This document shows, in pieces, positions 2,185 through 32,197 of a stretch of 42,764 nucleotides of DNA. The position numbers and the translations under genes were made by a program. The first letter of the stretch is position 1; every line of letters starts with the position of its first letter. The notes beneath the pieces were generated by a model. That model did not search any database and had not been told where the DNA came from. It worked only from the letters and a program-made list of their open reading frames with translations. The DNA lies in the sequence record SRR20825019_1881. One strand, 5' to 3'.

Positions 2185-3171
2185 TTAATTCTCAACCGGA
2201 ATGAATTCCGAAGTCGCGACTTCGTCTGCCCGCATCGGCTTTTCGAGCACTTCAAACTCCCTAAGCAGTTCGATTTCCCGTTGCACGCGTTCCAGCACCA
2301 ATTGTCCCACGCGCTCGCCCTTCGCCGGATCACCCGCGGCCAGTTGATTCTCAATGAGTGCCTGACGCGAATAGTTTAAGTGCTCCAAAGACATCTGATC
2401 GTTGCGCGACATAATCAGTTGATGAGCCGGCGCCGGATCGCCTTCGAGGTAATCGCGCCAGCCGCGAATCGACGCACTGACAAACGCGCGCACTAATTCT
2501 GGATCATCCCGCACCAGTCCGCGTCGGGTCAGCATCACATGGTAACTGTCGTAGCCCGTATCGCTCAACCGCAACGTGCGCACTTTGGCACCGCGTTGAC
2601 GCGCAAAGAACGGTTCACTGGTGAGAAAGCATTGTTGGATCGTGGTCTTGTCAGACAGGAACTGGGCCAGTCCGTAGCTGGTCGGAATCAGCCCGAAAGT
2701 AATCTCGTATTTCTTTTGAATGTAGGGAATCCACGTCATGCCCACCGCGGCAATCACGGTGCGCCCGTCGAGATCAGCGAACGACTGCACCGGACTATTC
2801 GCGTGCACAAGGATCGCCTGAGGATCATGCTGCAAGGTCGCACCGATCATCATCAAAGGAAGCCCCCGACTCGCCGCGAGAATCGCATCATCGCCACGAA
2901 ACATTCCAAAATCGGCGACGCCTTTGGCGATTTTCAACAACACGCCGGCACCGGGTCCGCCCGCGATAATCTCCAAATCCAAACCAGCCTCGCGATAATA
3001 GCCTTTGGCCAGAGCCTGATAGAACCCTCCATGCTCGGCCTGTGGAAACCAATCACTCTGAAAAGTCACTTTGCGTAACTCGGGAGATTCCGCTGTTATC
3101 TCTTGGCGGCTGCAACCGATTGTGGCCAGCAGGCAAGTAAGCAGGAGAACGAATAGAGAGACGGAGCGCAC
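2185..3171 (-). CDS. NMT1/THI5-like ABC substrate-binding lipoprotein (purine/pyrimidine-type ligand)
   Basis: Lipobox-like ATIG-C; DWFPQAEHGGFYQA, GGPG, QHDPQAIL, FVSASIRGW. Confidence 0.88.
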   Translation of the reverse strand: MRSVSLFVLLLTCLLATIGCSRQEITAESPELRKVTFQSDWFPQAEHGGFYQALAKGYYREAGLDLEIIAGGPGAGVLLKIAKGVADFGMFRGDDAILAASRGLPLMMIGATLQHDPQAILVHANSPVQSFADLDGRTVIAAVGMTWIPYIQKKYEITFGLIPTSYGLAQFLSDKTTIQQCFLTSEPFFARQRGAKVRTLRLSDTGYDSYHVMLTRRGLVRDDPELVRAFVSASIRGWRDYLEGDPAPAHQLIMSRNDQMSLEHLNYSRQALIENQLAAGDPAKGERVGQLVLERVQREIELLREFEVLEKPMRADEVATSEFIPVEN

Positions 3172-3244
3172 GCGATGAAGTTGAGAGTCAAAACGACAAA
3201 CTCAAATCCCAAACAAGGATCCCGCCGTAAGCAGAGTAGTATTT

Positions 3245-3305
3245 TGGAGGGTCCACCTCCGCGTGGACCGGTTCCGGCACGGACGACACGGAAGTCGTCC
3301 CTCCA
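3245..3305. repeat. REPIN-like doublet of GGAG-tagged REP hairpins
   Basis: Two 25-bp units in inverted orientation, TGGAGGGTCCACCTCCGCGTGGACC (3245-3269) and GGACGACACGGAAGTCGTCCCTCCA (3281-3305); each folds into its own hairpin. Confidence 0.75.
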
Positions 3306-3364
3306 TTTCCAAGCCGGCGAGAGATCTCGGGGTATCTAACCCAAAAACACATGAGCCCCGTTTC

Positions 3365-4243
3365 CTACGGCAGCCTCAGCAACTTTTTCGCGTTGTCCCG
3401 CACGATCGATCTCAGTTGCTCCGCGGTCAGCTCCGACCGATGCACTTCTGCCACCAGTCGGGTCATATTCGGAACGGGATCGATATTCGGATAAAGATTC
3501 AACGGATAGTCCGAACCAAACAGCACTCTCTCAGCGGGAACCTGCTCGCAGAATTTCCGCCAAATTTTCTGATCGTAGAGCAACGGTGATGCCGCCGTGT
3601 CGTAGTAAATATTATCCGGCATCACTTCTTGGGAAACCAGGGGCAACCGCCCTCCCCAATGCGCGAGGATGAAGATCGTGTCCGGGTGCGCTTTGGCGAG
3701 AACCCGAAAATCATTTAAAGGCGTCGTCACTTTCCCGGGGTAATCCCGACTCTCCGGTTCGGTAACGTGCAGATTGACCGGCATGCCCAATTTCCCGGCG
3801 AGTGACATCGCCATCGCGAATGTCGGATCGTCTATCGAGAAGCGTTGCGAATGCGGTGACAGCTCTCCGAGCCCAATCAAGCCGGACTCGTGTGCCCGCG
3901 TGATTTCGTCCATCGTCAAGGCCATTCCTGCCCCGGGATGAAACGTCGCGAAGGCTGACAACCGATCCGGATGCTTCTTCACGCACTCCGCATAAAATCG
4001 ATTCTGCATTTCACAGGTTTCGGGCTTTTCCCAATACCAACCCAAGAGCACACCACGAGCGACCGAGGCCTCGTCCATCGCCCGCAACAGCTCATCCACC
4101 GAAGGAAACGTTTGCACGGGCTGCCCGTCTGGCCGCTTTCGCGTGCACAGGGTGGACCAATGGTCTTCGTTGTGAGCCAAAGCCCAGCCCGCAGGATCAC
4201 GGTTCACCTCCTCGGGATATAAATGGATATGCGTGTCGATCAT
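3365..4243 (-). CDS. Amidohydrolase family 2 metal-dependent hydrolase/decarboxylase
   Basis: IDTHIH metal motif, GLGEL, VNLH, ILAHWGG, YYDTAA, VLFGSDYP. Confidence 0.9.
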   Translation of the reverse strand: MIDTHIHLYPEEVNRDPAGWALAHNEDHWSTLCTRKRPDGQPVQTFPSVDELLRAMDEASVARGVLLGWYWEKPETCEMQNRFYAECVKKHPDRLSAFATFHPGAGMALTMDEITRAHESGLIGLGELSPHSQRFSIDDPTFAMAMSLAGKLGMPVNLHVTEPESRDYPGKVTTPLNDFRVLAKAHPDTIFILAHWGGRLPLVSQEVMPDNIYYDTAASPLLYDQKIWRKFCEQVPAERVLFGSDYPLNLYPNIDPVPNMTRLVAEVHRSELTAEQLRSIVRDNAKKLLRLP

Positions 4244-4311
4244 GGGATAAAAACAATCTCGTTCTCATAGTTATTCTCGTTCTGAATCTCGCAAGCTGAG
4301 AACCCCGCCCC

Positions 4312-5628
4312 ATGCTCGAACGTTTATTTAAACTCCAACAACACGGCACCACGACGGTGCGTGAAGTGCAGGCGGGCTGCACCACATTTGCGGCGATGGC
4401 TTATATCCTCGCCGTCAATCCGGCGATTCTCGCAGCAGCGGGCATGCCCATCGAGGGATTGATCACCGTCACCGCAGTGAGTGCGGCGGTGAGCACGTTG
4501 CTGATGGCTCTCATGACCAACTTCCCGCTCGCGCTCGCGCCGGGCATGGGAATCAACGCCTATTTCGCCTACACCGTCTGTGTGGGACTCGGTGTGCCGT
4601 GGCAACAGGCACTCGGCCTGGTCCTGGTCAACGGGTTCGCGTTTCTCTTCCTCTCCCTCTCGGGAATCCGCGAGAAGATCATCAACGTGATTCCGTTTCA
4701 ATTGAAGATGGCCATCACCTGCGGTGTGGGGCTCTTCATCGCGTTTATCGGTTTAAAAAACGGCGGTCTGATTACCGCCAGCGACGCCACGCTCGTCACC
4801 CATGGCGCTCTGGGTTCGCCTCCCGTATTGCTTTGTTTCGGCGGCATCTTGCTCACCATTATTCTGATGGTTCGAAAAATTCCAGGTGGAATCATCCTCT
4901 CCGTTGTCGCGATCACCTTGATCGGACTCTTCGTGCCCAATGGACAGGGCGGCTGGGTGACGCAACTGCCTGATCACTTCGTGTCCCTCCCCGCCTCGAT
5001 GGGCGATACGTTCATGCAGTTGAGCTTCGGTTATTTCACCGCTGATCCCGTGAAAGCGACGACCGTCGTGCTTACCTTGTTGCTGATCGCCCTGTTCGAC
5101 AATGTAGGAACCCTGATCGGAGTGACCCAACGGGCGGGTCTGCTCGATAAAAACGGACACCTTCCCGGAGCCGGTAAAGCGCTCACCGCCGATTCACTGG
5201 GAGTCATCGCGTCTGCGATTTTCGGCACCTCGAATGTGGTCAGCTACATCGAATCCGCGTCCGGTGTGGAAGCCGGTGGACGCACCGGTTTGGTGGGCGT
5301 GACCGTCGCGGGACTCTTTGTCGTCGCCTTGTTTTTCACTCCACTAATACAGGCGATCCCCACCGTCGCCACCGCCCCGGCACTCGTGGTCGTGGGCATC
5401 TTCATGTTTCAATCCGTCGCGCAACTCGAACTGAAAGAACTGCGGGATGTGGCACCCGCCTTTATCATCATTCTGGCAACGCCCCTCACCTTCAGTATTG
5501 CCGAGGGCATCGGGCTCGGTTTGGTCGCCTACACAGTGATCTACCTATTCACGGGCAAATCACGGGAAATATCATGGTTGGTTTATGTGCTCGCCGCGAT
5601 CTTCTCCGTGCATCTCTTCGCTAAATAA
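4312..5628 (+). CDS. NCS2/AzgA-family nucleobase (guanine/hypoxanthine-type) permease
   Basis: TTFAAMAYILAVNP, LAPGMGINAYF, FDNVGTL, YIESASGVEAGGRTG, PLTFSIAEG; multiple TM helices. Confidence 0.93.
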   Translation: MLERLFKLQQHGTTTVREVQAGCTTFAAMAYILAVNPAILAAAGMPIEGLITVTAVSAAVSTLLMALMTNFPLALAPGMGINAYFAYTVCVGLGVPWQQALGLVLVNGFAFLFLSLSGIREKIINVIPFQLKMAITCGVGLFIAFIGLKNGGLITASDATLVTHGALGSPPVLLCFGGILLTIILMVRKIPGGIILSVVAITLIGLFVPNGQGGWVTQLPDHFVSLPASMGDTFMQLSFGYFTADPVKATTVVLTLLLIALFDNVGTLIGVTQRAGLLDKNGHLPGAGKALTADSLGVIASAIFGTSNVVSYIESASGVEAGGRTGLVGVTVAGLFVVALFFTPLIQAIPTVATAPALVVVGIFMFQSVAQLELKELRDVAPAFIIILATPLTFSIAEGIGLGLVAYTVIYLFTGKSREISWLVYVLAAIFSVHLFAK

Positions 5629-5659: not shown

Positions 5660-7102
5660 TCAAGCGAAGAGCCGCCAGAAAAAGGCCACCGTTCCTGTGA
5701 CCAGAATCCCCAATGCCACCGGCAAGAGAGTGGAAACCGCGGTCCACTTCGCACTACCGGTTTCTTTGTAAATCGTGTAGATGGTCGTGCTGCAGGGATT
5801 GTGAAGGAGGCTGAACAGCATCAGATTGATGGCCGTAAGGAGGGTCCAGCCACCAGCCTCCAAAATGACTTTGGTGGCGGCGTGCGAATCGAGTTCAAAC
5901 ATCACACCGGCGCCCGGACCGACTCCATGCACTCCCGCCGACAAGACCGTAAGCATCAGGATCGTGGGAATCACGATCTCGTTGGCAGGAATCGCCACGA
6001 CGTAGGCGATGAGAATCACGCCATTGAGTCCAATGATCATCGCGATGGGATCGAGTTCACTAATCAACCAGACCGCGAGACTCGCATCGCCCACCGCGAT
6101 GTTGGCAATCAGCCAGATCACCGCACCGGCCGGAATGGCAAAGACGATCGCGCGCCAGAGCACAAAGAGCGTGCGATCAATCAACGAGGTGTAGAGCGTG
6201 CGGAGAATTGCCGGTGGCCGATATGGAGGCAGTTCCAAACTGAAGGCGGAGACCTCGCCCTTCAGCACCGATTTCGACAGCGCCCACGAAACGATGAGCG
6301 TAAACAACATTCCCAGCAGCGCGACGCTGGTGACAGCCCCCGCCGCGACGAGCCCCGCCCAATGAGCCGGCACCATCGTGCCGAGAAAGATCGACGCGAT
6401 CAGGATCTGCGTCGGCCAACGTCCGTTACAGAGCGCGAAATTGTTGGTGATGATCGCAATCAATCGCTCGCGCGGACTGTCGATAATCCGCGTCGCCACG
6501 ACTCCGGCCGCGTTGCAACCGAATCCCATCATGGTGCTCATCGATTGTTTTCCGTGCGCGCCGACACTCTTGAATAGCCGATCGAGGTTAAACGCGACCC
6601 GGGGCAGATAACCAAAATCTTCGAGGATCGTGAACAATGGGAAAAAGATCGCCATGGGCGGCAGCATCACGCTGATCACCCACGCCATCGAAAGATACAT
6701 CCCATCGATGAGCACACCGGTCAGCCATGCCGGGAAACCGAGATTCACGGAACCCTCTCGTAAAATCGGCCACAACCAATCCACCAAAACATTGGCCAGC
6801 CAACCCGAAGGCGCATTCGCTCCGAGAATCGTGATCCAAAACATCAGCGCAAAGAGCAGCAGCATGATGGGGAAGCCCCAGAGTTTGCTGGTGAGAATCC
6901 GATCAAGAGCGCGATCGAATGTCGGCCGCGCGGAATGCCCCGGACGCGTCACTGATCTTTCGGCGATTTTGGCGGCATCACTATAAATCGCTTCGACGAT
7001 ATGCTCATGGACATCACCGGGAATATCCCGCCGGAGCCGCCGGGCGGCTTCGAGAATCCCGTTGGCATCCATAGCAGGATTGGAGCTGTTTTCGGTGGCC
7101 AT
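5660..7102 (-). CDS. feoB: FeoB transmembrane (Gate/FeoB_C) half of a split FeoB
   Basis: [46 protein letters not shown]; no GTPase domain. Confidence 0.9.
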
Positions 7103-7944
7103 TACAGTTGAGGAATTGAGGATTCGGCATTTTCGGTCGCCAGATTTTGGGAAAGCGTCAAATCTCCCAACGTGCCATCACGAAGCGCGGCCGCCAGCGA
7201 TTCGTCACCACCCAGCAAGCGCATCGCGACCCAACGCACGTTGGGCAAACCCGGATAGGCCGTCGTGATCTGGGCGACCAACTGGTTGAGGGCTTCCTTG
7301 AGAGCCGGCGGTTCATTTTGCAGACGATGAGGTTTGCCCGTGACCTTCCCACTGGCGACATCTCCGATCATATTTAACAATTCGGGCAACCCCACCCCGG
7401 CACGCGCAGATGTGGGCACCACCGGCACCCCCAGGTCGCGGGAGAGTTGACGATCATCGATTTCCACGTGATGGCGTTTCGCCTCATCCATCAGATTGAG
7501 GCAGAGAACAACGCGGTCCGTGATTTCGAGCACCTGAATCACGAGATTCAAATTGCGTTCCAAACGGGTGGCATCCGCGACGACCACGGTCACATCGGGT
7601 TGACCAAAGAGAATAAAATCGCGCGCGATCTCCTCGTCGAGGCTCGTGGAGAGCAGCGAATACGTGCCGGGCAGATCCACGATCTTGTAGTTCTTTTCCC
7701 CGTAGGAAAAACCGCCTTCCGCTCGCGTCACCGTTTTACCGGGCCAGTTGCCGGTGTGCTGTCGCAATCCGGTCAGCGCATTAAACACGGTGCTCTTGCC
7801 GGTGTTGGGATTTCCCGCGAGCGCGATCATGTAATCCCAATGATCCATATTCACGCCGAGACGCTTTAAATTGGCCGCGCGATAAATACCGCAATCGGCA
7901 CAAGCTTCACTGGGAGCCGGGCTCTGTTTTGTCGTTGCGTTCAT
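7102..7944 (-). CDS. feoB: FeoB N-terminal GTPase half of a split FeoB
   Basis: G1 [16 protein letters not shown]3 DLPGTY, LERNL, G4-like NLMDE; stop overlaps the next start (TAATG). Confidence 0.92.
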
Positions 7945-8975
7945 CGGGATAAGGCAGGGTCGGAAATGGAGACGCGTTGGCCGATTCGAATCATTCGCGC
8001 CTGTTCACGGCGCAGGGCAATCATCGTGCCCCGCACGAGATATGCAGTGGGATCACCGGTCGGGCTCGGCAATTCAACGGAGATGACGGTGCCGGGCACG
8101 AAACCGAGGTCGAGTAGCCGACGACGTTCGGCCCCGCGACACGCGGCACTCAGACTGAGGACGTGAGCCTCTTCACCAACTCGCAGATCGGAAAGATATT
8201 CCTCCTCCAGGAGATCGGCAGCCGTCACATCAGGAATCGGTTTAATTCCAATATTGTTGGCGAGGATCGGAGCCAGCACGAGTTCGTGACCTTCCGCCCA
8301 CAGTTTTAGGAAATCCGATTCCTTCGAAAGAATACAGGTTCGCATCCCCGGGCGCAATCCCAGGGCCAGAAGCTGACGATACACCGCGAGGGGCTCATCT
8401 TCGATGTGCACAATCTCCAGTGGCTTGTTGATCGGAGCCGTATTGAGAGGCTGACCTTCGTCCGCATCCAAATCCCCGCCCAAGACCGGAATAATATCCC
8501 CATGCGGATCTGCGATCGGGTGTCCGAGTTTGGCTTCCAGATCACTCGCCTGGGCCGGCGTGAGTTGATGCTCCTTCTGTTCGGCCAACCGATGCCATTG
8601 CGCTTCATCCACTCCGGTTTGTTCCGCCAGATAACTCTCCCACAAACGGTGGGCCCGCACGATATGCAACGCGAGTTCACGACCAGAATCCAATAATGAC
8701 AGGCGACCTCCGGCATAGGAGATCAGTTTACGGCGCTCCATCGCGCTGAGGAGTTCCGAAGCGGCATCATCACTGATGTGCAACGCACCCGTCACGCTGT
8801 TCAGAGTCGGCACCTGCCCATTCACTTCGGATTTCAGGATATGCTTGAGAGCATCCTCCCGACGCACCCGGTCGAGTCGGCGCTGGGCCTCACGCCAACG
8901 CGAAATGACCCCAACGCCGGGCCAAAAAAGAAGAACCGCAATGGTCAGGAGAGACAGTGTTAACAGCCAGGACAT
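7941..8975 (-). CDS. Membrane-anchored DtxR-fold protein fused to two FeoA (SH3) domains
   Basis: N-terminal hydrophobic helix; [33 protein letters not shown]; FeoA signatures [10 protein letters not shown] and [34 protein letters not shown]. Confidence 0.85.
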
Positions 8976-8987
8976 GAATAAGAAATA

Positions 8988-9653
8988 TTAGGAAAGTGCT
9001 CCCACCACTATTTTAGCCGCCGCGGGTAACCCCAGCGTCACTTCTGTGCCCGCCGTCAGCTCGCAACGCAGCACGCCGCTAGTAACCTCGCGTCGGACGA
9101 CTTTCACCTTCGCGCCGGGTTTCAGTCCGTTGTCTTGCACGTAATCGAGAAAATCCGGGGATTGATCGAGAATCCGGGCAACCCTCAACGATTTGTTTAT
9201 CGCACAACTCTGCATGGTCACCTGCATCGCCGCTTCGGCGATCCGACCTTCCACATCAGGAATCGGGTCGCCATGGGGATCCACCGTCGGATGCCCCAAG
9301 TATTCATCGATCCGCTCCAACACGCGATCGGAGACAGCGTGTTCAAGTGCTTCGGCTTCTTCGTGAACTTCCGACCAATCCATCTTCAAGGTCTGCACCA
9401 GAAATGTTTCGACCAAGCGGTGTTTGCGCAGCACGCCCAGCGCCAGGGCGCGGCCCACCGGAGTCAAGCGCACCCCCTGCCGTGATTCGTGCTCCATCAA
9501 CCCCTGCGTCGCCATCGCCTTGACCATCGTCGTGACAGTGCCCGGAACCACTCCGAGGGCTTCCACCAAGGCACCCATCGGCACAATCCCCTCATTCTCC
9601 TGTTCATGCAGGAGCGTCGCTTTCAAGTAGTTTTCAACCGTGCTGGTAGCCAT
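8988..9653 (-). CDS. mntR: DtxR/MntR-family metal-dependent repressor with C-terminal FeoA-like domain
   Basis: TVENYLK, HTH LGVVPGTVTTMVK, RKHRLVETFL, VHEEAEALEH, HPTVDPHGDPIP; Glu where DtxR has Cys102 points to the Mn-type subgroup. Confidence 0.9.
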   Translation of the reverse strand: MATSTVENYLKATLLHEQENEGIVPMGALVEALGVVPGTVTTMVKAMATQGLMEHESRQGVRLTPVGRALALGVLRKHRLVETFLVQTLKMDWSEVHEEAEALEHAVSDRVLERIDEYLGHPTVDPHGDPIPDVEGRIAEAAMQVTMQSCAINKSLRVARILDQSPDFLDYVQDNGLKPGAKVKVVRREVTSGVLRCELTAGTEVTLGLPAAAKIVVGALS

Positions 9654-9690
9654 GAATAGGTATGTAAAATGAATTAAACGGGAATACGCA

Positions 9691-9715
9691 AATTATAATT
9701 TGACTAATCAAAATA
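9691..9715. promoter_or_regulatory. Back-to-back -10 boxes plus a candidate DtxR/MntR-family operator
   Basis: AATTATAATT (9691-9700) gives TATAAT on both strands; adjacent dyad TTTGACTAATCAAA (9699-9712, one mismatched pair). Confidence 0.65.
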
Positions 9716-9749
9716 GAAACCCACCGCTCTTTCTTTGAATACTCAAATT

Positions 9750-11891
9750 ATGAATTACTTACGTTCGTATTCCAAATGCTCTCTGCGTCTTGCGCTGCTC
9801 GGTGGACTCACACTCTTAACGCTGACCAGCTCGGGCGAGGATCGTGCCACGGAACTACAGGAAGACGGCCGGATCGTTCAAATGGAGGCCTTCGTTTCAA
9901 CCGGAACGAGAACCAGACAAGCCGCTGATACCACCCCTGTTCGCGTCGAGGTAGCCTTGGCCGAAGACTCCACGCGTCTCGGATCCATGTCCTTCGCGGA
10001 CACAATGGAATACATCCCCGGCGTGCAGGTGGAAAGTAACTGTCAAAACTGCAATACGACGGAAATCCGTCTCATGGGTCTGGGTGGTGCCTACAACCAA
10101 ATCGCGTTTGATGGACTCCCGATGTTGTCATCGTTGGCCGGAGTTTACGGAGTCGAACAGGTTCCCGCCGCGTTTATCGAACGGATCGAAGTGGTCAAAG
10201 GCGGAGGCTCCTCCCTTTACGGAGCCAATGCCGTGGCCGGGGTGGTCAACATCATCCCCCGGCGCCCGCGGGAAAGCGGAGAAACTCTCGATTATCGTTA
10301 CGAATCCACCCACGGCGCCCCCACGCATCAAGCGGGATTCGTGAGTAACACCGTCAGCTCTCACCTCACGGTCTCAATCTACGGCCAGGCATTGCATATC
10401 CATGAATTGGATCTCAACAACGACGGCTATACCGAACGCACCCGTCGACGCATGCAGGTTGCTGGCATCCGTGGCCAATACACGGGCACCCACTTCATCG
10501 TTTCAGGAGACGTGAATTTTACGCATGAATACCGGCGTGGTGGTAACTTTTTGGATCGCCCCGCCCACCTGAGTAACATCACAGAGCAACTCGATACCCG
10601 TCGAACCGCGGCGACACTTTCCTTGGAATCCAAGAGCTCACCACAATTCGATTACAAAATTGTCCTGGCGGGAGCATGGACTCAACGCGACAGCTATTAT
10701 GGAGGACTCGGCGAGGTGATCACAGATCCTGAGGAAGCCGGTTTCGATCAGAACGCCTATCACCAGAGCTTGGCCCTTTCCGAAAACCAATACGGCGTGA
10801 CTGATAATCCACTCTACGTCTTCGACGCCCAATTCAACCACTACCGGAATGGCCAAACCTTTTCGTGGGGACTCCAGGGCGAGTATGAAGAAATCGACGA
10901 CCGAAATATTTCCGCGACCGGAGGTCCGACACAGGTGTCCCCATTAATCGAAGACTTTTCCAATCTCGCCTTATTCGGACAACACGAGTGGTCAGTCAGT
11001 GATCAGATCACGATCCTGTCAGGCGTCCGGGTGGATAAAAACAATCAGTTGGATCAAGCCATCCTCTCACCACGACTCTCCCTGAGTTACCGGGCGAGCA
11101 AGTATTTCACGCTGCGCGGTTCGTTGAGCACCGGCTTCAGAGCACCCCGGATTTTCGACGAAGATCTCCACATCAACACGCTGGGTGCAGATCCCATTGC
11201 GATCATCAACACCCCTGGTCTGAAAAAGGAGAACGCGATTGCCGCCAATTTCGGCGGTGTGTGGACCCCACGGCCCTGGGCAGAGGTGTTGGCGTTCGAA
11301 TTCAACGGCTATCTCACCCACCTGCGCAACGCGTTTCAACTGTCGCCCATCCGCACCAACTCCGCTGGTGACCTCGTGCAGGAACGATTCAATGCGGGAA
11401 CCCTTCGTGGCACTGGCCTCGAATTCAATGCCGCCTATTCCTTCACCTCGAAGCTGCGAGCTGATCTCGGGCTGGTTTGGCAACGAACGCGTCACGACAA
11501 TCCGGTCGAGCTGTTCAATGACGGCGTCGGCAATGTCATCCGGACCACTCATCTGAACAAGACCCCGGATCGATTCGCGGTGCTCCAACTTCAGTATGAA
11601 AACCCCGAGGGCTTCGATTTGGCCGTGGGCATCCGTCACATCGGCTCGATGCGCGTCCTGAACAACACGCATGGCACGTTTCACCAGACCTCGGCTTACA
11701 ACCTATTCGATCTGTCGATTGGTAAACATCTCGCTCTGGGTCGAGCCGAGGCTGAGGTCCGTCTGGGTATTCGCAATCTGACGGATGATCGCCAGCACGA
11801 CTTTGAAAGTGGTTCCTTACGTGACAGCACCTACGTCTACGGTCCAAGGCAGCCACGTTCCTATTTTAGCAGTCTCCGGGTGAATTTTTGA
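9750..11891 (+). CDS. TonB-dependent outer-membrane receptor with CxxC in the plug
   Basis: Signal peptide; TonB-box-like EAFVSTGTR; plug IPGVQVESNCQNC..IERIEVVKGGGSSLYGANAVAGVVNII; GFRAP; NLTD; C-terminal Phe. Confidence 0.93.
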   Translation: MNYLRSYSKCSLRLALLGGLTLLTLTSSGEDRATELQEDGRIVQMEAFVSTGTRTRQAADTTPVRVEVALAEDSTRLGSMSFADTMEYIPGVQVESNCQNCNTTEIRLMGLGGAYNQIAFDGLPMLSSLAGVYGVEQVPAAFIERIEVVKGGGSSLYGANAVAGVVNIIPRRPRESGETLDYRYESTHGAPTHQAGFVSNTVSSHLTVSIYGQALHIHELDLNNDGYTERTRRRMQVAGIRGQYTGTHFIVSGDVNFTHEYRRGGNFLDRPAHLSNITEQLDTRRTAATLSLESKSSPQFDYKIVLAGAWTQRDSYYGGLGEVITDPEEAGFDQNAYHQSLALSENQYGVTDNPLYVFDAQFNHYRNGQTFSWGLQGEYEEIDDRNISATGGPTQVSPLIEDFSNLALFGQHEWSVSDQITILSGVRVDKNNQLDQAILSPRLSLSYRASKYFTLRGSLSTGFRAPRIFDEDLHINTLGADPIAIINTPGLKKENAIAANFGGVWTPRPWAEVLAFEFNGYLTHLRNAFQLSPIRTNSAGDLVQERFNAGTLRGTGLEFNAAYSFTSKLRADLGLVWQRTRHDNPVELFNDGVGNVIRTTHLNKTPDRFAVLQLQYENPEGFDLAVGIRHIGSMRVLNNTHGTFHQTSAYNLFDLSIGKHLALGRAEAEVRLGIRNLTDDRQHDFESGSLRDSTYVYGPRQPRSYFSSLRVNF

Positions 11892-11955
11892 AGAACAGCG
11901 CTGAATCCACACTTACGCCTTGCCGCAAAAGGATCGACCCGAACACACTCCGTCC

Positions 11956-13650
11956 GTGTCGAAGTCCTTTGCGCGCATCGTCTTTGCCCTGACGGCCACG
12001 TTTTTCGCTGCCTTCTTTATCTGGCCGATCATCCAGATTCTGAAAGGTGGATTCATTGACGCCGACGGACACTTCACCGTCGCCTACCTCGCGTCACTTT
12101 TAAGCGACCCGCTTTATCTCGGCGGCCTGAAAAACTCCTTCATGCTGGCCTGCGCGACGACCGGGCTGACGCTCATCATCGCCCTGCCCCTCGCCTTCAT
12201 CTCGGATCGGTTTATCTTTCCAGGGAAAGGCTTTCTCGGATCCCTGATTCTCGTGCCGATGATTCTACCGCCTTTTGTGGGGGCGATTGGGATCAAACAG
12301 ATCTTCGGACAATACGGCGCCGTGAACAGTTTCATCATCCAACTCGGTTTGCGCCCCGAGGGCTGGACCTTCGATTGGTTTGCCGCGAATCAGTTTTGGG
12401 GCGTCGCCGTGATCCAGGCTCTTTCACTTTACCCAATCATCTACCTGAATGCGGTGGCCGCTTTGGCCAACATCGATCCCGCCATGGAGGAAGCCGCGGA
12501 AAATCTCGGCTGCACGGGCTTCCGACGGTTTTTTAAGATCACGATGCCCCTGATTAAACCGGGGTTATTTGCCGGCGGCACTATCGTATTTATCTGGTCG
12601 TTTACCGAACTGGGAACGCCGTTGGTCTTCGATTACGCGAAAGTCACCTCGGTGCAGATTTTTTACGGTTTGAAAGATATCGGCGGAAATCCGTTTCCCT
12701 ATGCTTTGGTAGCGGTGATGCTGTTCAGTTCGATCGCGCTTTATGCGATCGGTAAGGGAATCTTTGGTCGCAATGCCCATGCGATGATGGCCAAAGCCAC
12801 GAGCACCGGCGGCCCCCGTAAACTCCCGCGTTGGCAAAGTCTGCTCTGCACGGCGATGTTTGCGGGAGTCACCATGATCGCCGTGCTGCCTCACTTCGGC
12901 GTGCTGCTCGTGTCACTCTCCAAGGACTGGTATGGCACGGTGATACCGCAAAGTCTCACCTTGGAGAATTTTGACATCGCGCTCAGCCACGATCTCACTG
13001 TGCCCTCGATTGCGAACAGTCTGAAGTTTGCGAGCATCTCCACGATCATCGATATCATCCTCGGCATCGCCATAGCCTATGTGGTGGTGCGGACGAAAAT
13101 CCGCGGACGCCAGGTGCTCGATTTTCTCGCGATGCTCCCCCTTGCGGTGCCCGGCCTGGTGCTCGCGTTCGGCTATCTCGCCATGTCGCAGGAAGGTAAG
13201 TTTTTCGATTTCATCAACCCGGTCACCGATCCGACGGTGCTTCTGATTATCGCCTATTCCGTGCGACGATTACCCTATGTGGTGCGCTCCGCGGCGGCCG
13301 GTTTTCAACAAACCAGCGAGACGCTCGAAGAAGCCGCCCAGAACCTCGGTTGCCCACCGCTCAAATCCACTTTCAAGATCACCTTGCCATTGATCACCGC
13401 GAATCTCATCGCCGGTGGTTTACTCGCGTTTGCCTTCGCGATGCTGGAGGTATCCGACTCGCTGATCCTCGCTCAGAAGCAGGCGTTTTACCCGATCACC
13501 AAGGCGATCATGGAACTCTTCCAGTTACTCGGCGACGGCAAGTTTATCGCCAGCGCGCTCGGAGTCTGGGCCATGGTTTTCTTGGGTGTGACCATCGTCG
13601 GCATGAGTCTGCTGCTCGGCAAAAAACTGGGCGCGATCTTCCGCGTTTGA
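11956..13650 (+). CDS. Fe(III)/FbpB-type ABC transporter permease (two fused TM domains)
   Basis: Two EAA motifs (MEEAAENLG, LEEAAQNLG); GTG 11956 preferred because TTG 11920 falls in a -35-like box. Confidence 0.9.
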   Translation: MSKSFARIVFALTATFFAAFFIWPIIQILKGGFIDADGHFTVAYLASLLSDPLYLGGLKNSFMLACATTGLTLIIALPLAFISDRFIFPGKGFLGSLILVPMILPPFVGAIGIKQIFGQYGAVNSFIIQLGLRPEGWTFDWFAANQFWGVAVIQALSLYPIIYLNAVAALANIDPAMEEAAENLGCTGFRRFFKITMPLIKPGLFAGGTIVFIWSFTELGTPLVFDYAKVTSVQIFYGLKDIGGNPFPYALVAVMLFSSIALYAIGKGIFGRNAHAMMAKATSTGGPRKLPRWQSLLCTAMFAGVTMIAVLPHFGVLLVSLSKDWYGTVIPQSLTLENFDIALSHDLTVPSIANSLKFASISTIIDIILGIAIAYVVVRTKIRGRQVLDFLAMLPLAVPGLVLAFGYLAMSQEGKFFDFINPVTDPTVLLIIAYSVRRLPYVVRSAAAGFQQTSETLEEAAQNLGCPPLKSTFKITLPLITANLIAGGLLAFAFAMLEVSDSLILAQKQAFYPITKAIMELFQLLGDGKFIASALGVWAMVFLGVTIVGMSLLLGKKLGAIFRV

Positions 13651-14532: not shown

Positions 14533-16005
14533 ATGCCCTCAAAACCATCCCCGAATCTGTCTGCACTAGGCAATTGGTTGCACTCGTGGGTGCAGCCCGA
14601 AGGCGCCATCCATGGTTTTCATAATCATCCCGTCTGGGGCACCAATCCCTATCGGCTCGGTGATATGACCGCCGGTCATACGACTTGGGCGTCTCCATTC
14701 CTCGCAGGTTTGGCCCAGGCCATCACGCAGCAACCCGATGATCGCGCCAAGGCGTTACTTGAACGGCTCGTCAATTTCCAGACCACCTCATTTCATCCGG
14801 ATGGCCAATACGCACACATCGGTTTCAACGCCGGCGAGATTTGCCAAAAAGGGCTCATCCACAACGCCCTGCCCAATTGCTCCCTGGGTCTCACCGCGCT
14901 CCATGCCCGCGATTGGTTGCCTGCTGATCTCCTCGAACAAATCCGCACCGCCATCCTGCGCAATCTGAACGAAGGTTGCCAACAATACGGCACCCATGGC
15001 CGCCCGGACGAAACTTCGGTATGTAATCAGGATTACGCACGTATTTGGGCAAAACTCCTCTTCATGCAGGCCTTTGATGATCGTCATTGGCATGACGAGG
15101 TTCGGGAGGACATCGATTACATGATCGAGCATTTCCACATCAATGGGATGCCCGATAGCGAGTCATCAGGCACTTTGCGAATCCAGGGAATCAAAGACAT
15201 TCTCGAGCCCTCCGAATACTACGGACTGATGATCTGCCCGTTGATCCTTGCCGCCGAGATTTACGGCGAAGAACGTTATCTTGATGAGGCCGGAAAATTC
15301 TGCCGTCACGTGGCGCGTTCCCAATGGACTGATCACAACGGTCAAACGCGATGCCACCGTATCTGGTATTACGCCGACGAGCAATGGCATCATAACAAGG
15401 GGCCCATGCTCATCGCCGGCATGGGCGATTCACTTGAAGGCATTCAGCGCTATCTACGCCTCCGACCCGATGAGGAACTTTCGACATTTCTCGAAGCCAC
15501 TGACCGAACTTACGCGCATTACCAACATCCGCGGGGCTTCCTCGTTTCCGGCACGGGTTGGCAAAGTGAAATCGACATCGCGCCGAGCACTGGCTGGCAA
15601 AGTCATGACTTCCGCTATCTCGTGAATCGTCACGGGATCGACGAAACCTTCTGGGAGGCATTTTTCGCCAGCGATGATCGCACCTCGGTGCTGATCGGCG
15701 ATCAATGTATCTGGTTTGAACGCGGTCAGCATTGGGCGATCGGAGATTTTCTCTGGCAGGATGTTTTTAATCTCGTGGGCCGGAAAGACAGCGTGGAATT
15801 CGGTCCGAATCTACCCGATTGGATTGAAGGGGGTTGGCATGCCCCGGCGAATTACCCGATGCCTGATCGCCCCGTATTCATTAAGACCGACGAACAGATC
15901 GCCCTGTGGAAAGGAAGCTGGGATCAGCTGGATGCCACTTCCATCGCCCAAACCCCGCTCGTGATCGCACCCGCTATCTCAAACTCCGCCCGAACAAGCA
16001 CCTGA
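14533..16005 (+). CDS. Hypothetical cytoplasmic protein, possible (alpha/alpha) toroid enzyme
   Basis: 490-aa ORF 5 bp after the EamA gene; repeated helix-end motifs (QPEG, HPDG, QHPRG; EIYGEERYLDEA). Confidence 0.7.
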   Translation: MPSKPSPNLSALGNWLHSWVQPEGAIHGFHNHPVWGTNPYRLGDMTAGHTTWASPFLAGLAQAITQQPDDRAKALLERLVNFQTTSFHPDGQYAHIGFNAGEICQKGLIHNALPNCSLGLTALHARDWLPADLLEQIRTAILRNLNEGCQQYGTHGRPDETSVCNQDYARIWAKLLFMQAFDDRHWHDEVREDIDYMIEHFHINGMPDSESSGTLRIQGIKDILEPSEYYGLMICPLILAAEIYGEERYLDEAGKFCRHVARSQWTDHNGQTRCHRIWYYADEQWHHNKGPMLIAGMGDSLEGIQRYLRLRPDEELSTFLEATDRTYAHYQHPRGFLVSGTGWQSEIDIAPSTGWQSHDFRYLVNRHGIDETFWEAFFASDDRTSVLIGDQCIWFERGQHWAIGDFLWQDVFNLVGRKDSVEFGPNLPDWIEGGWHAPANYPMPDRPVFIKTDEQIALWKGSWDQLDATSIAQTPLVIAPAISNSARTST

Positions 16006-25400: not shown

Positions 25401-27017
25401 TCACCGGGAATTGCGAGCCAGCTCGGCGGCACGGCGATATTGCTCACGCAGCTTGGCCCCAAGCGAACGCGCCATCCGCACTTCTTCCACCCGATTCTTC
25501 GCCTGCAGGGCATCCCGAATCGATCCGCCGACTTCATCGTAAGTCAGGAGCGACATATCGTTAAGCACGGCCATCGCGTCAGCCGGCATTCCGGCGTCAA
25601 TAATCGCCCGCCACGCCTCGACTAATTCCTCATGGGTATCCAGGCACATCACACGAATGCTAAAAGCCATTTCCCGAAAAAGGCGCCCCGTCCATTCCGG
25701 ACGATAGACGAGTTGATCTTCTCCTTCATAGGGCTGCGCGTCAGGATCTGAACGCAACTCCAGCCAATCCTGATGCGAGTAGTATTCACGACGAACGGGC
25801 AAGCGACGTAACGCGAAACGCTCCGGACCCTCGGGCGTGCCCACTTTGAAATTCCAGAGCTTCTGCCCTTCCATCGAGAGCGTATATTCGATGAATGCTT
25901 CGGCGACTTCCGCATTGGGCGCTCCTCGCAAAATACCGATCGGATCCACCGAACTCACCGTGCCGCCCTGAGGAGTCACATAGACAAGACGGGCCGAATC
26001 ATCACGCCTCTTTACAGCTTCAGCCTGATAGCGACCATAGAAATCAATACAGACTCCGGCGGCTGAATTTCCCTGCGATACGTCGATGGGCGGCTTCTGT
26101 GATGAATCGGTGAAATACCGAGCGTTCGCACCCAACAGGCGCAGAATACGCATACCTTCGATCCAACCCTCGCGCACCGCCTGCGCTTCAAGATCAGCGG
26201 TCACGACACCATTATTCGCCCGCGCCAACTCCACCAGCCGCGCTTGCATCTGTTGTTGGATCAAATTTTCAAACGCTTTCGTGATGGATCCACTCTTGGT
26301 CGGATCACAGACCGCCACTTCACCAATCAGTCTCGGATCAGTCAGATCACTCCATTTCACAGGCGCGCGCTCAATCCCGAGGCGCTTGAATGAATCCTTG
26401 TTATACAGAATGCCGTAGCTGCTCAGCACATTTCCGATCCAACGCGCCTCTTTATCCCAATACTGCTCACCGGCAAATGTGTAGGGAATCGTGTCATCGT
26501 TGAACCATTCCGGATGTGTTTCCAGAATCGTGGAAGGCACTAAACGACCGGCCTGAGCCTGACGGATAAAATCGTAGCTGCCGCCACCGAAGAACAAATC
26601 GATTCCGCAACTCACTTCGGATTCAAGGAAGACCTGCCGCGCTTCTTTTTCCTGCTCGGTCGCATCATCAGCCAGTCGTCGATTCGCGAAGGCTGCCTGC
26701 ACGGCGATGCTCCACGGTTTGTCCAGCGTTCGCGTCCAATAATTTTGAAACGCCGCCACATATTCGGAATCCAAAAAACGGGCGATTTCACTGGTCCCCC
26801 CAATTACGCGCCAATCGATCGCCACGGTTTTCCCTGTCTTCTCGCGATACCATTCCTCAAACCCTACCGTGAACTCGTGACGAATCGCTTCGTTGTGGGG
26901 GGTGATGATCACGAGACCAACATCGGCTTTGCCGGTGTGCTCCTTGGCCGGGCGCAAAATAAAAGGCAGCGCGACCGTCGCGACCAAGGCCAACAAGATG
27001 AGCACGCGTTTCGTCAT
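25401..27017 (-). CDS. Fe(III)/AfuA-type ABC substrate-binding protein with insertions
   Basis: IITPHNE, IDLFFGGG, GILYNK, WSDL, DPTKSGS, DPIGILRGAPN..AEAFIEY. Confidence 0.85.
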   Translation of the reverse strand: MTKRVLILLALVATVALPFILRPAKEHTGKADVGLVIITPHNEAIRHEFTVGFEEWYREKTGKTVAIDWRVIGGTSEIARFLDSEYVAAFQNYWTRTLDKPWSIAVQAAFANRRLADDATEQEKEARQVFLESEVSCGIDLFFGGGSYDFIRQAQAGRLVPSTILETHPEWFNDDTIPYTFAGEQYWDKEARWIGNVLSSYGILYNKDSFKRLGIERAPVKWSDLTDPRLIGEVAVCDPTKSGSITKAFENLIQQQMQARLVELARANNGVVTADLEAQAVREGWIEGMRILRLLGANARYFTDSSQKPPIDVSQGNSAAGVCIDFYGRYQAEAVKRRDDSARLVYVTPQGGTVSSVDPIGILRGAPNAEVAEAFIEYTLSMEGQKLWNFKVGTPEGPERFALRRLPVRREYYSHQDWLELRSDPDAQPYEGEDQLVYRPEWTGRLFREMAFSIRVMCLDTHEELVEAWRAIIDAGMPADAMAVLNDMSLLTYDEVGGSIRDALQAKNRVEEVRMARSLGAKLREQYRRAAELARNSR

Positions 27018-27023
27018 GATCGA

Positions 27024-28097
<1,074 letters not shown>

Positions 28098-28216
28098 GCG
28101 TGCGCGAGGATTTCCGAAGCAAGAATCGCCCCTCTTTGAAGTCAAAGGAAATACTCCCTTTATCAATGTAACGCATTGCCACCATGGGCTCTTTTCGCTC
28201 CCCTCAGAGACAGATT

Positions 28217-31798: not shown

Positions 31799-31873
31799 TC
31801 GTGTCATCGCAGATGTCCCCATTTGCAATTCAGCCGATTCTCGTTCACTTCACTTTCAAATATACAAATAATC

Positions 31874-32197
31874 ATGTCCGAAAATATCACGAACCTCACC
31901 ACCGATACATTTAAAGACGCCGTCGCAGGCGATACGCCCGTCCTCGTGGACTTCTGGGCTCCTTGGTGCGGTCCCTGCAAAGCCATCGCCCCGATCCTCG
32001 ACGAACTTTCCGGCGAACTCGGTGACAAGATCAAGATCTGCAAAGTAAACGTCGATGAGAACGATGCCATTTCCGCTGAGTATGGCATTCGCGCTATCCC
32101 TACCATGCTCGTGTTCAAGGGTGGTCAGGTCGCCGAACAAATCGTCGGCATGCTCCCGAAGGACGCCCTCAAAGCGAAGCTCGAATCGCACCTCTAA
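31874..32197 (+). CDS. trxA: Thioredoxin
   Basis: VDFWAPWCGPCK, IRAIPT; start at MSENI. Confidence 0.97.
   Translation: MSENITNLTTDTFKDAVAGDTPVLVDFWAPWCGPCKAIAPILDELSGELGDKIKICKVNVDENDAISAEYGIRAIPTMLVFKGGQVAEQIVGMLPKDALKAKLESHL

Follow-up and report, generated by a model that had tools for sequence, protein, structure and literature searches.

A putative manganese uptake locus with a membrane-anchored DtxR-FeoA sensor, a split FeoB and a divergent CQNC-type TonB-dependent receptor

Which metal enters the cell through a FeoB-type transporter whose gene is cut in two, whose FeoA domain forms part of a membrane-anchored metal sensor and whose operon diverges from the gene of a TonB-dependent receptor, and how is such a transporter controlled? 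The question is raised by a locus at positions 5660..11891 of a DNA stretch of 42,764 nucleotides from record SRR20825019_1881, which in its entirety we call the window; judged by best matches, the host appears to belong to the Opitutaceae, Verrucomicrobiota. An earlier note on this DNA, made from the sequence alone, had described the locus as a self-contained and probably Mn-responsive uptake module of five genes. With moderate confidence we interpret it as a divalent-metal uptake system, most likely for Mn2+, that is controlled both at transcription and at the transporter itself; the specificity for manganese is one that we infer from sequence.

The five genes are arranged as the earlier note had claimed, as borne out by the open reading frame (ORF) map and the domain scans. 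Four lie on the minus strand and are transcribed in the order soluble repressor, sensor, G-protein, permease: a three-domain DtxR/MntR repressor of 221 residues (8988..9653; Fe_dep_repress, Fe_dep_repr_C and FeoA/SH3 in Pfam), a membrane-anchored DtxR/MntR-fold sensor of 344 residues (7941..8975; Fe_dep_repr_C and two FeoA stretches), the G-protein half of FeoB, which comprises the GTPase domain and a portion of the helical domain (280 residues, 7102..7944; FeoB_N 1.4e-60, FeoB_Cyto 5e-4) and the membrane half of FeoB (480 residues, 5660..7102; Gate twice, 3e-25, and FeoB_C, 3.8e-12). Read from the sequence, the first two genes are separated by 12 bp (TATTTCTTATTC), the second and third overlap by ATGA (CCGATGAAC) and the two FeoB halves share one base in a TAATG overlap (CTGTAATGG). 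On the plus strand, beyond a control region of 96 bp (9654..9749), lies the gene of a CQNC-type TonB-dependent receptor of 713 residues (Plug 1.5e-20, barrel 1.3e-34 in Pfam), which ends at 11891 and could start at an ATG (9750) or a TTG (9735); we prefer the ATG because it better fits the N-termini of close homologues.

A membrane-anchored sensor in front of a split FeoB

The AlphaFold2 model of the 344-residue protein (mean predicted local distance difference test score, pLDDT, 95.2; predicted template modelling score, pTM, 0.88) consists of a helix at residues 2-17, a turn of five residues, a winged helix-turn-helix (wHTH) with dimerisation helices that together make up the full DtxR fold, and two SH3-like domains. 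Foldseek superimposes it on 5zr6 over 215 columns with a TM-score by target of 0.88 and a root-mean-square deviation of 2.1 Å. By sequence, residues 261-331 match FeoA chains of both stand-alone and fused kinds (7r7b, 2k5f, 2k4y and 2k5l), and they form the only true FeoA domain of the locus: the "FeoA" match in the 221-residue repressor is no more than the C-terminal SH3-like domain usual in DtxR proteins, and the ORF map of the locus leaves no room for a gene as small as a separate feoA or feoC. All 79 relatives whose N-terminus is complete have a hydrophobic N-terminal segment and, after it, a basic stretch; the maximum 17-residue Kyte-Doolittle mean is 1.59 to 3.57 across these rows, and by the positive-inside rule the remainder of the protein would be cytoplasmic. 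In the model only about five residues separate the anchor helix from helix 1 of the DNA-binding domain.

The best-studied relative is PgMntR of Porphyromonas gingivalis, for which we draw throughout on an excerpt of Zhang et al. 2016 (PMC4805248), our source for the PG1044 operon, with Dashper 2005 and He 2006 as citations therein. According to that excerpt, PgMntR is a DtxR-like protein with twin FeoA domains that is encoded with the Mn transporter FeoB2 (FB2). The earlier note was thus right about P. gingivalis, but the counterpart of PgMntR at this locus is the 344-residue protein and not the 221-residue repressor. The predicted ligands of PgMntR are Asp19, Cys108, Glu111, His112, His85, Glu89, His104, Asp132, His134, His166, Asp169 and Glu170 (PMC4805248, excerpt), to which D41, E132, E135, H136, H109, E113, H128, D156, H158, H190, D193 and E194 correspond in the window protein. 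Eleven of the twelve residues are identical and Cys108 is replaced by Glu in this comparison, which is indirect, being made from the published residue numbers at a fixed offset (+24, or +22 for Asp19) and not from an alignment with the PgMntR sequence. Within the family of the 344-residue protein these positions are kept in at least 77 of 81 aligned rows, with the exception of position 132, where 65 rows have Glu, 9 Asp, 4 Cys, 2 His and 1 Gln. Cysteine at this position is confined to four loci (L050, L051, L060 and L069; two labelled Bacteroidales, the others Draconibacterium and Saccharicrinis), and PgMntR was not among the best 120 matches to a profile of these four Cys-type sequences. As published, PgMntR begins about where the window helix ends. 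Nine other family members (P0416, P0420, P0427, P0440, P0457, P0480, P0485, P0492 and P0505), of 300-320 residues, start at about residues 31-36 of the window protein and so, like the published PgMntR, are without the membrane helix; these could be genuinely soluble proteins, or their start codons may have been called too far downstream.

How widely this arrangement occurs was assessed by a scan of one genome per species with the family of the 344-residue protein. Relatives were found in at least 586 species genomes, and the locus counts given in this paper refer to the best 80 of them (identified by L numbers). With the 344-residue query, a library clustered at 50% identity yields 363 clusters at E-values up to 1e-30. 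Of 8000 candidate proteins scored, 5899 had E up to 0.001, so that the relatives, alike in length and domain content, number in the thousands; each of the best 120 listed has both PF02742 and PF04023. The 80 loci come from Verrucomicrobiota, Planctomycetota, Chloroflexota, Ignavibacteria, Bacteroidota, Gemmatimonadota, Acidobacteriota and Calditrichota. Anaerolinea, among the sources of the full-length homologues listed in the PgMntR paper (PMC4805248, excerpt), is likewise represented. A FeoB gene follows the sensor gene in 79 loci, and in the 80th the contig ends at that point. FeoB is encoded in two parts, divided at the same point, in 59 loci and is a fused gene in 13; the contig ends after the G-domain in five, and three are undecided. 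A repressor gene of the 221-residue type is adjacent in the same direction in 35 loci and divergently in 4; in another 5 it lies nearby, and 36 have none. Where the upstream sequence reaches 2.5 kb or more (59 loci), these figures become 25, 3, 4 and 27. The Feo core is ancient and widespread, and its outer-membrane partner seems exchangeable between lineages, being a CQNC receptor here and a PF13557 barrel elsewhere, with none close by in most loci. In nine, mostly Chloroflexota, loci (L005, L006, L011, L012, L014, L020, L028, L075 and L080) the operon is flanked by proteins clustering with an HMA-domain P-type ATPase, an assignment made by a Pfam scan of the L028 representative only, and metal import and export may be encoded side by side there.

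Against the single-polypeptide FeoB model TIGR00437, whose cut-off is 315.65 bits, the G-protein half matches at model positions 1-176 (205.9 bits) and the permease half at 236-594 (174.9 bits). Each half falls below the cut-off, but the GTPase motifs, both Gate motifs and FeoB_C are all present. Could the gene then be a frameshifted pseudogene or a product of sequencing error? Besides the two sub-threshold scores, extra breaks at L010, L019, L026 and L028 would fit that explanation. It is nevertheless extremely improbable, and we rejected it: the split recurs at the same point in several phyla, with ORFs of about 255-320 and 465-525 residues, and the one-base TAATG overlap is typical of coupled translation. 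Both halves are also highly conserved, with mean column identities of 61% for the G-protein and 70% for the permease. The G-protein is 54-67% identical to its counterparts across phyla, with C15, C18 and the G motifs invariant in 38 sequences; the permease, in which a cytosolic stretch of about 65 residues precedes the membrane part, shares 54-71% identity with 37 homologues of other phyla, with C196, C225 and C437 invariant. A comparison of the permease half with solved structures gave no match at E up to 0.001.

The permease half is only 24% identical to the canonical 703-residue FeoB of L077, which is encoded a few hundred bases from an operon FeoB that is itself 65% identical to that of the window. 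Taken together with the conservation of the two halves, this low identity indicates that the split is an old and selected state of a distinct FeoB subfamily. A canonical 703-residue FeoB gene was seen near the split Feo-type operon in two loci, both from Bacteroidota (L035, 14340-16451(-); L077, 11302-13413(-)), so that two kinds of FeoB coexist there and are not redundant copies. The G-protein bears one further feature, an N-terminal extension of about 35 residues (window 7840-7944) with the consensus CETCPxHNxxNLxKLG, in which Cys15-x-x-Cys18 is present in 38 of 38 sequences and after which canonical FeoB models begin; it may serve, at the contact surface with the sensor, as a metal-binding or redox-active site.

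The soluble repressor, the control region and the division of labour

In Pfam the 221-residue repressor matches PF01325 (2e-09), PF02742 (3e-31) and PF04023 (2e-11). It aligns over its full length to 5zr4 with the ligand pattern HxxxE...HxxxExxEH, and its nearest solved relatives are 5zr4/5zr6 (1.2e-42 for 5zr4), DR2539 (8pvt), ScaR (3hrs) and SloR (5cvi), these Mn-dependent repressors outranking IdeR and DtxR. The primary site of DtxR consists of Met10 and Cys102-x-x-Glu105-His106, of which Met and Cys mark an iron-specific site (PMC4805248, excerpt). In the window repressor N8 and E101-x-x-E104-H105 stand in their place with the same i, i+3, i+4 spacing, within the stretch EEAEALEH (residues 98-105), as the earlier note had proposed in pointing to a Glu at the DtxR Cys102 position. 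The complete set of Mn-type ligand residues is N8, H78, E82, H97, E101, E104 and H105; of 44 homologues, at least 90% keep E101, and position 8 is divided equally between N and D (22 each). The pattern is Mn-type, as a correlate of metal specificity and not a measurement of it. The protein scores below the NCBIfam equivalog cut-offs for both the Thermus-type MntR (NF047407, 180.7 against 350 bits) and DtxR (NF053665, 111.1 against 290 bits).

The control region has a GC content of 29%, against about 56% window-wide, and fits the AT-rich divergent gap of about 96 bp noted earlier. It holds two operator-like sites, O1 and O2. O1 (AATTTGACTAATCAAAAT, 9697..9714), an 18-bp near-palindrome and our candidate operator, is conserved in L001, L004 and L017: L001 has a perfect palindrome, ATTTTGACTAGTCAAAAT, about 45 bp upstream of its repressor gene, L004 has a close variant in the space between its divergent repressor and sensor genes, and L017 has the core immediately upstream of its operon. 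With up to three mismatches allowed, O1 is the sole match in the window to the 18-bp palindrome of L001, where 0.01 would be expected. O2 (TTTGAATACTCAAA, 9734..9747) has an operator-like core that ends 2 nt before the receptor ATG and belongs, in the repeat scan, to a direct as well as an inverted repeat. The core pattern TTTGAMTAMTCAAA matches the window only at O1 and O2, both within the gap, against 0.06 matches expected, a figure to be read in the light of the pattern having been composed after both sites were already seen.

The earlier note had also proposed a dyad operator shared by the two promoters. Palindromes are indeed present in the gap, and operator-like sites stand at both promoters, but the best-supported site is O1 and not the 12-bp palindrome AAATTATAATTT (9690..9701), which reads TATAAT on either strand. 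Binding to O1 is predicted, and AAATTATAATTT possibly represents back-to-back -10 elements abutting it; in L001, TATAAT is likewise kept beside the palindrome. O1 would then sit between a possible -35 element and the TATAAT of the repressor promoter, and would also cover the likely start site of the receptor promoter. A generic promoter scan did no better than chance, with 5 promoter-like sites against 4.6 in shuffles. The best candidate for a Fur box in the gap agrees at 11 of 19 positions with an E. coli consensus and is equalled or bettered at 157 other window positions, which makes this a weak test.

Two proteins of the DtxR fold in one operon invite the question of what each does. We favour a division of labour in which the 221-residue protein represses transcription and the 344-residue protein serves as FeoA adaptor and metal-sensing brake, since the latter is tethered and carries the only FeoA domain, a separate repressor is encoded beside it, and its recognition helix is the less conserved of the two. 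In the recognition-helix columns the mean identity is about 0.33 in the sensor family and about 0.51 in the soluble repressor (from per-column digits), and the net charge is -0.5 as opposed to +0.8.

Alternatively, the 344-residue protein might be a plain repressor of its own operon, as published for PgMntR, with a helix that only localises it and a FeoA part without any role in transport. We regard this as a real possibility, if a doubtful one. PgMntR binds the promoter of the FB2 operon in vitro, Mn2+ raises its affinity for DNA, and loss of the last FeoA domain abolishes binding of both DNA and Mn (PMC4805248, excerpt); the wHTH fold is intact in our model, and 36 loci, or 27 of those with enough upstream sequence, have no second repressor nearby. 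It is less easily reconciled with an anchor so close to DNA-binding helix 1 in every complete homologue, with the lower conservation and slightly acidic charge of the recognition helix, with the want of any other FeoA in the locus for this FeoB, and with the separate soluble repressor that is adjacent in 39 of the 80 loci.

Under the division of labour that we favour, the system would work as follows. When cytosolic Mn2+ is sufficient, the metallated 221-residue repressor would occupy O1 and O2 and both promoters would be off. When Mn2+ is scarce, the receptor would carry the metal across the outer membrane with TonB energy and the split FeoB would move it across the inner membrane. The 344-residue protein, tethered beside FeoB, would offer its FeoA domain to the G-protein, and its DtxR-type metal sites would tune or shut transport once the cytosol is replete, adding a fast layer of feedback on top of transcriptional control. 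A complex prediction for the G-protein with residues 165-344 of the 344-residue protein (score 0.00, mark 0.32) speaks neither for nor against binding.

A broader and more tentative proposition, which we think rather less likely to be right than wrong, is that PgMntR-type proteins in general are primarily membrane-tethered sensors and not transcription factors. A complete DtxR fold would in that case have been recruited to switch a split, Mn2+-importing FeoB: the anchored dimer would keep FeoA in contact with the free G-protein and act according to occupancy by cytosolic Mn2+ or Fe2+. Such control would be post-translational, would operate in several phyla and would have been joined in some lineages by a TonB-dependent CQNC gate for manganese in the outer membrane. 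PgMntR itself may then have been misread as a plain gene repressor.

The CQNC receptor and its neighbours

The plug of the receptor carries the sequence ESNCQNCNT, in which C98 and C101 (ATG numbering) are invariant in 19 of 19 aligned homologues. Close relatives of the receptor number 12 and share 53-78% identity with it; after them, at 38-43%, come proteins from Xanthomonadales (including a Stenotrophomonas maltophilia cluster of 1607 members), Sphingomonas and the opitutacean Termitidicoccus, and one S. maltophilia CQNC receptor is 39% identical. In the receptor tree the window protein falls in a clade of seven (support 100/99) that is sister (92/92) to a clade of S. maltophilia/Xanthomonadales, Sphingomonas and Termitidicoccus proteins. 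Its NCBIfam matches are weak, all of them to heme and siderophore receptors and far under the cut-offs.

The CQNC-type receptor of S. maltophilia is regulated by MntR and encoded beside mntR-mntH, with a putative role in transport, as stated in an excerpt of Argueta-Zepeda et al. 2026 (PMC13217887). According to the same excerpt, the CQNC locus requires limitation of Fe besides that of Mn, its synteny spans Lysobacterales, Sphingomonadales and Opitutales, and the receptor gene is always followed by that of a periplasmic thioredoxin-fold protein (CAPC). Membership of the CQNC type suggests by analogy that the present locus, too, is linked to manganese. No ORF for a periplasmic CAPC partner was found in the whole window, the gene after the receptor being that of an ATP-binding cassette (ABC) permease. 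The window does encode a TrxA-like thioredoxin with a WCGPC motif (31823-32197(+)), which is without a signal peptide and is not the CAPC partner.

The earlier note had presented the five genes as a unit and had tied its reading to a receptor that is conserved beside the Feo genes and co-regulated with them. Comparison of neighbourhoods does not uphold the first part, as a receptor lies beside the operon in just 2 of the 80 related loci, and in none of their flanks did a hidden Markov model of this family detect a further TonB receptor; the second part fares better, given the operator-like sites at both promoters. In L040 (Saprospiraceae) a CQNC receptor gene is inserted between the repressor and sensor genes, and in L077 (Flavobacteriaceae) a receptor with a CSVC plug diverges from the repressor as in the window. 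With CxxC-plug receptors in the window, L040 and L077, the linkage appears to have arisen in three distant lineages. It probably extends to two close relatives, where the source and the length of the longest contig (5390, 10131) are common to sensor-type proteins P0005 and P0006 and receptors P0127 and P0126, respectively. For the two Opitutaceae loci, L001 and L004, the upstream sequence is too short to reveal a receptor, and the 108 bases upstream of the L001 operator contain no recognisable receptor start. Beside the CSVC receptor of L077 (Mangrovimonas) we noted, at 2205-4879(+), an ORF with a borderline match to sigma-70 region 2 (24.1 bits against a cut-off of 24) and a 706-residue protein with a weak, sub-threshold match to the TonB C-terminal domain, which may be a dedicated energising or signalling pair.

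Elsewhere the operon has a different outer-membrane companion. A PF13557 (Phenol_MetA_deg) barrel is encoded in or beside it in five loci from Verrucomicrobiota, Ignavibacteria and Bacteroidota (L003, 6742-7767; L004, 3-683; L023, 11731-12501; L027, 11325-12077; L035, 11206-11964), and two fragments of such a barrel, detectable by phmmer only, lie at 4117-4983 of L001. This barrel may be an alternative entry route through the outer membrane. With CxxC receptors in three lineages and PF13557 barrels in others, an outer-membrane partner seems to be useful but exchangeable.

Whether the locus is self-contained, as the earlier note had it, is a separate matter. It has no TonB-ExbBD genes of its own, and the two-domain ABC permease (11920..13650(+); BPD_transp_1 twice in Pfam) starts 28 bp past the receptor with no terminator-like site between them in the terminator scan. 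The permease is possibly co-transcribed with the receptor, and its membership of the module is uncertain. Its best NCBIfam model is PhnU2, under the cut-off, and neither a binding protein nor an ATPase is encoded beside it. Some 12 kb away lie genes for a binding protein and an ATPase (25401-27017(-) and 27024-28166(-)) of the same PhnS2/PhnT2/PhnU2-like group, all under cut-off, so that one ABC transporter may be encoded in two places of the window. Further downstream of the permease, right after an EamA transporter gene, is an ORF of 490 residues without any Pfam or NCBIfam match (14533-16005(+)).

The receptor might accordingly not be the working partner of Feo at all, but pair with the ABC permease or work alone while sharing the regulator and promoter region. 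The scarcity of receptors in the flanks of related loci and the short, terminator-free junction with the permease would agree with such independence, as would the S. maltophilia type adjoining MntH and not Feo (PMC13217887, excerpt). We nevertheless consider it somewhat unlikely, since the adjacency recurs in three distant lineages and probably in the two close relatives, operator-like sites serve both promoters, and the PF13557 barrels in or next to five operons suggest that an outer-membrane partner is of use to this Feo system.

Metal specificity and relation to known systems

The locus might instead be an iron system, in which a DtxR/IdeR-type iron repressor governs a conventional Feo transporter for Fe2+ together with a receptor for iron or siderophores. 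Every FeoB model that the two halves match is named for ferrous iron, the cysteines of the permease are conserved, and the weak matches of the receptor are to heme and siderophore receptors. On the other side, both DtxR-fold proteins have Asn/Asp and Glu in place of the iron-site Met and Cys of DtxR, the closest solved structures are Mn-dependent repressors, and this FeoB stands far from the canonical paralogue that accompanies its near relative in the L077 genome. The sole characterised transporter encoded with a PgMntR-type protein is, moreover, a Mn transporter (PMC4805248, excerpt). On balance we judge an iron system to be unlikely.

Some findings do weigh against a manganese importer with a transporter-level brake. 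Metal specificity has been measured within this family for the P. gingivalis proteins only. The permease half keeps C196, C225 and C437, which we take to be the cysteine-lined pore proposed for Fe2+ FeoB, so that nothing in the pore argues for Mn. The receptor is missing from 78 of the 80 related loci and is followed here by an ABC permease. The affinity of PgMntR for Fe2+ is likewise high, nanomolar or better, and the protein binds promoter DNA in vitro (PMC4805248, excerpt); the DNA binding, together with a wHTH that is equally conserved in the sensor family and the soluble repressor (mean column identity 0.50 and 0.51), speaks against a role that does not involve DNA at all. In Akkermansia, itself a verrucomicrobium, a DtxR regulator and a Feo cluster are reported to respond to iron, and the double Fe and Mn requirement of the S. 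maltophilia CQNC locus (PMC13217887, excerpt) also suits an iron system.

Each part of the locus has a published relative, and it is therefore not a new kind of system. In the open-access literature that we searched, we found no account of the membrane anchor of the PgMntR family or of the conserved split of its FeoB, nor of the breadth of the module or its pairing with a CQNC receptor. A study of Bacteroides fragilis FeoAB excluded DtxR-FeoA fusions from its survey (PMC8980893), a 2022 paper on the evolution of Feo leaves DtxR and split forms unmentioned, a 2022 review of Mn homeostasis does not mention FeoB, and FeoB is mentioned zero times in the paper on the CQNC receptor (PMC13217887). 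In a system where FeoA is joined to a metal sensor, where the G-protein is made as a polypeptide of its own and where both are kept beside the permease in hundreds of species, the action of FeoA on FeoB and the shutting-off of Feo transport become accessible to test. If the module does import Mn2+, manganese would have a major path of entry in Verrucomicrobiota, Planctomycetota, Chloroflexota, Bacteroidota, Ignavibacteria, Gemmatimonadota and Acidobacteriota; if the proposed role of the sensor is also true, it would amount to a post-translational feedback mechanism for Feo-type transport in several bacterial phyla. From a different phylum, and beside a different inner-membrane importer, the locus further lends independent support at the genomic level to the new proposal that CQNC receptors form part of manganese regulons.

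The relation of the locus to known systems can be set out part by part. With the Mn-responsive repressors of the DtxR family (5zr4/5zr6, DR2539, ScaR and SloR) the 221-residue repressor shares its domains and ligand pattern; it differs from these solved proteins in lying under the equivalog cut-offs, and its operator and metal response are predicted. A dedicated outer-membrane step for the uptake of scarce Mn, as proposed here, is known from the TonB-dependent MnoT of Burkholderia and the channel MnoP of Bradyrhizobium, as given in an excerpt of a review (PMC9334652). Like the CQNC receptor of S. maltophilia (PMC13217887, excerpt), that of the window has a CQNC plug, the gene of a DtxR-family regulator beside it and a palindromic box in its promoter region, but it belongs to the sister clade and the neighbouring inner-membrane importer is of the Feo type and not MntH.

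With canonical FeoABC and FeoAB systems (E. coli, Vibrio, and the FeoAB fusion of B. fragilis, PMC8980893) the locus has in common the G-domain, the helical domain, the Gates, FeoB_C and FeoA. Unlike them, it has FeoA fused to a membrane-anchored metal sensor, neither free nor fused to FeoB; its FeoB is split and 24% identical to canonical FeoB, FeoC is missing, and control appears to be of the DtxR type rather than the Fur type, subject to the weakness of the Fur-box test. Closest of all is the PG1044 operon of P. gingivalis, which shares the wHTH, the dimerisation and metal domain, the two FeoA-type domains and an operon with a FeoB-family transporter. In contrast to PgMntR as published, the window protein has an N-terminal membrane helix of some 24 extra residues and a Glu in place of Cys108, and in contrast to the PG1044 operon, the locus described here combines a split FeoB with a second, soluble MntR-type repressor and an adjacent TonB receptor.

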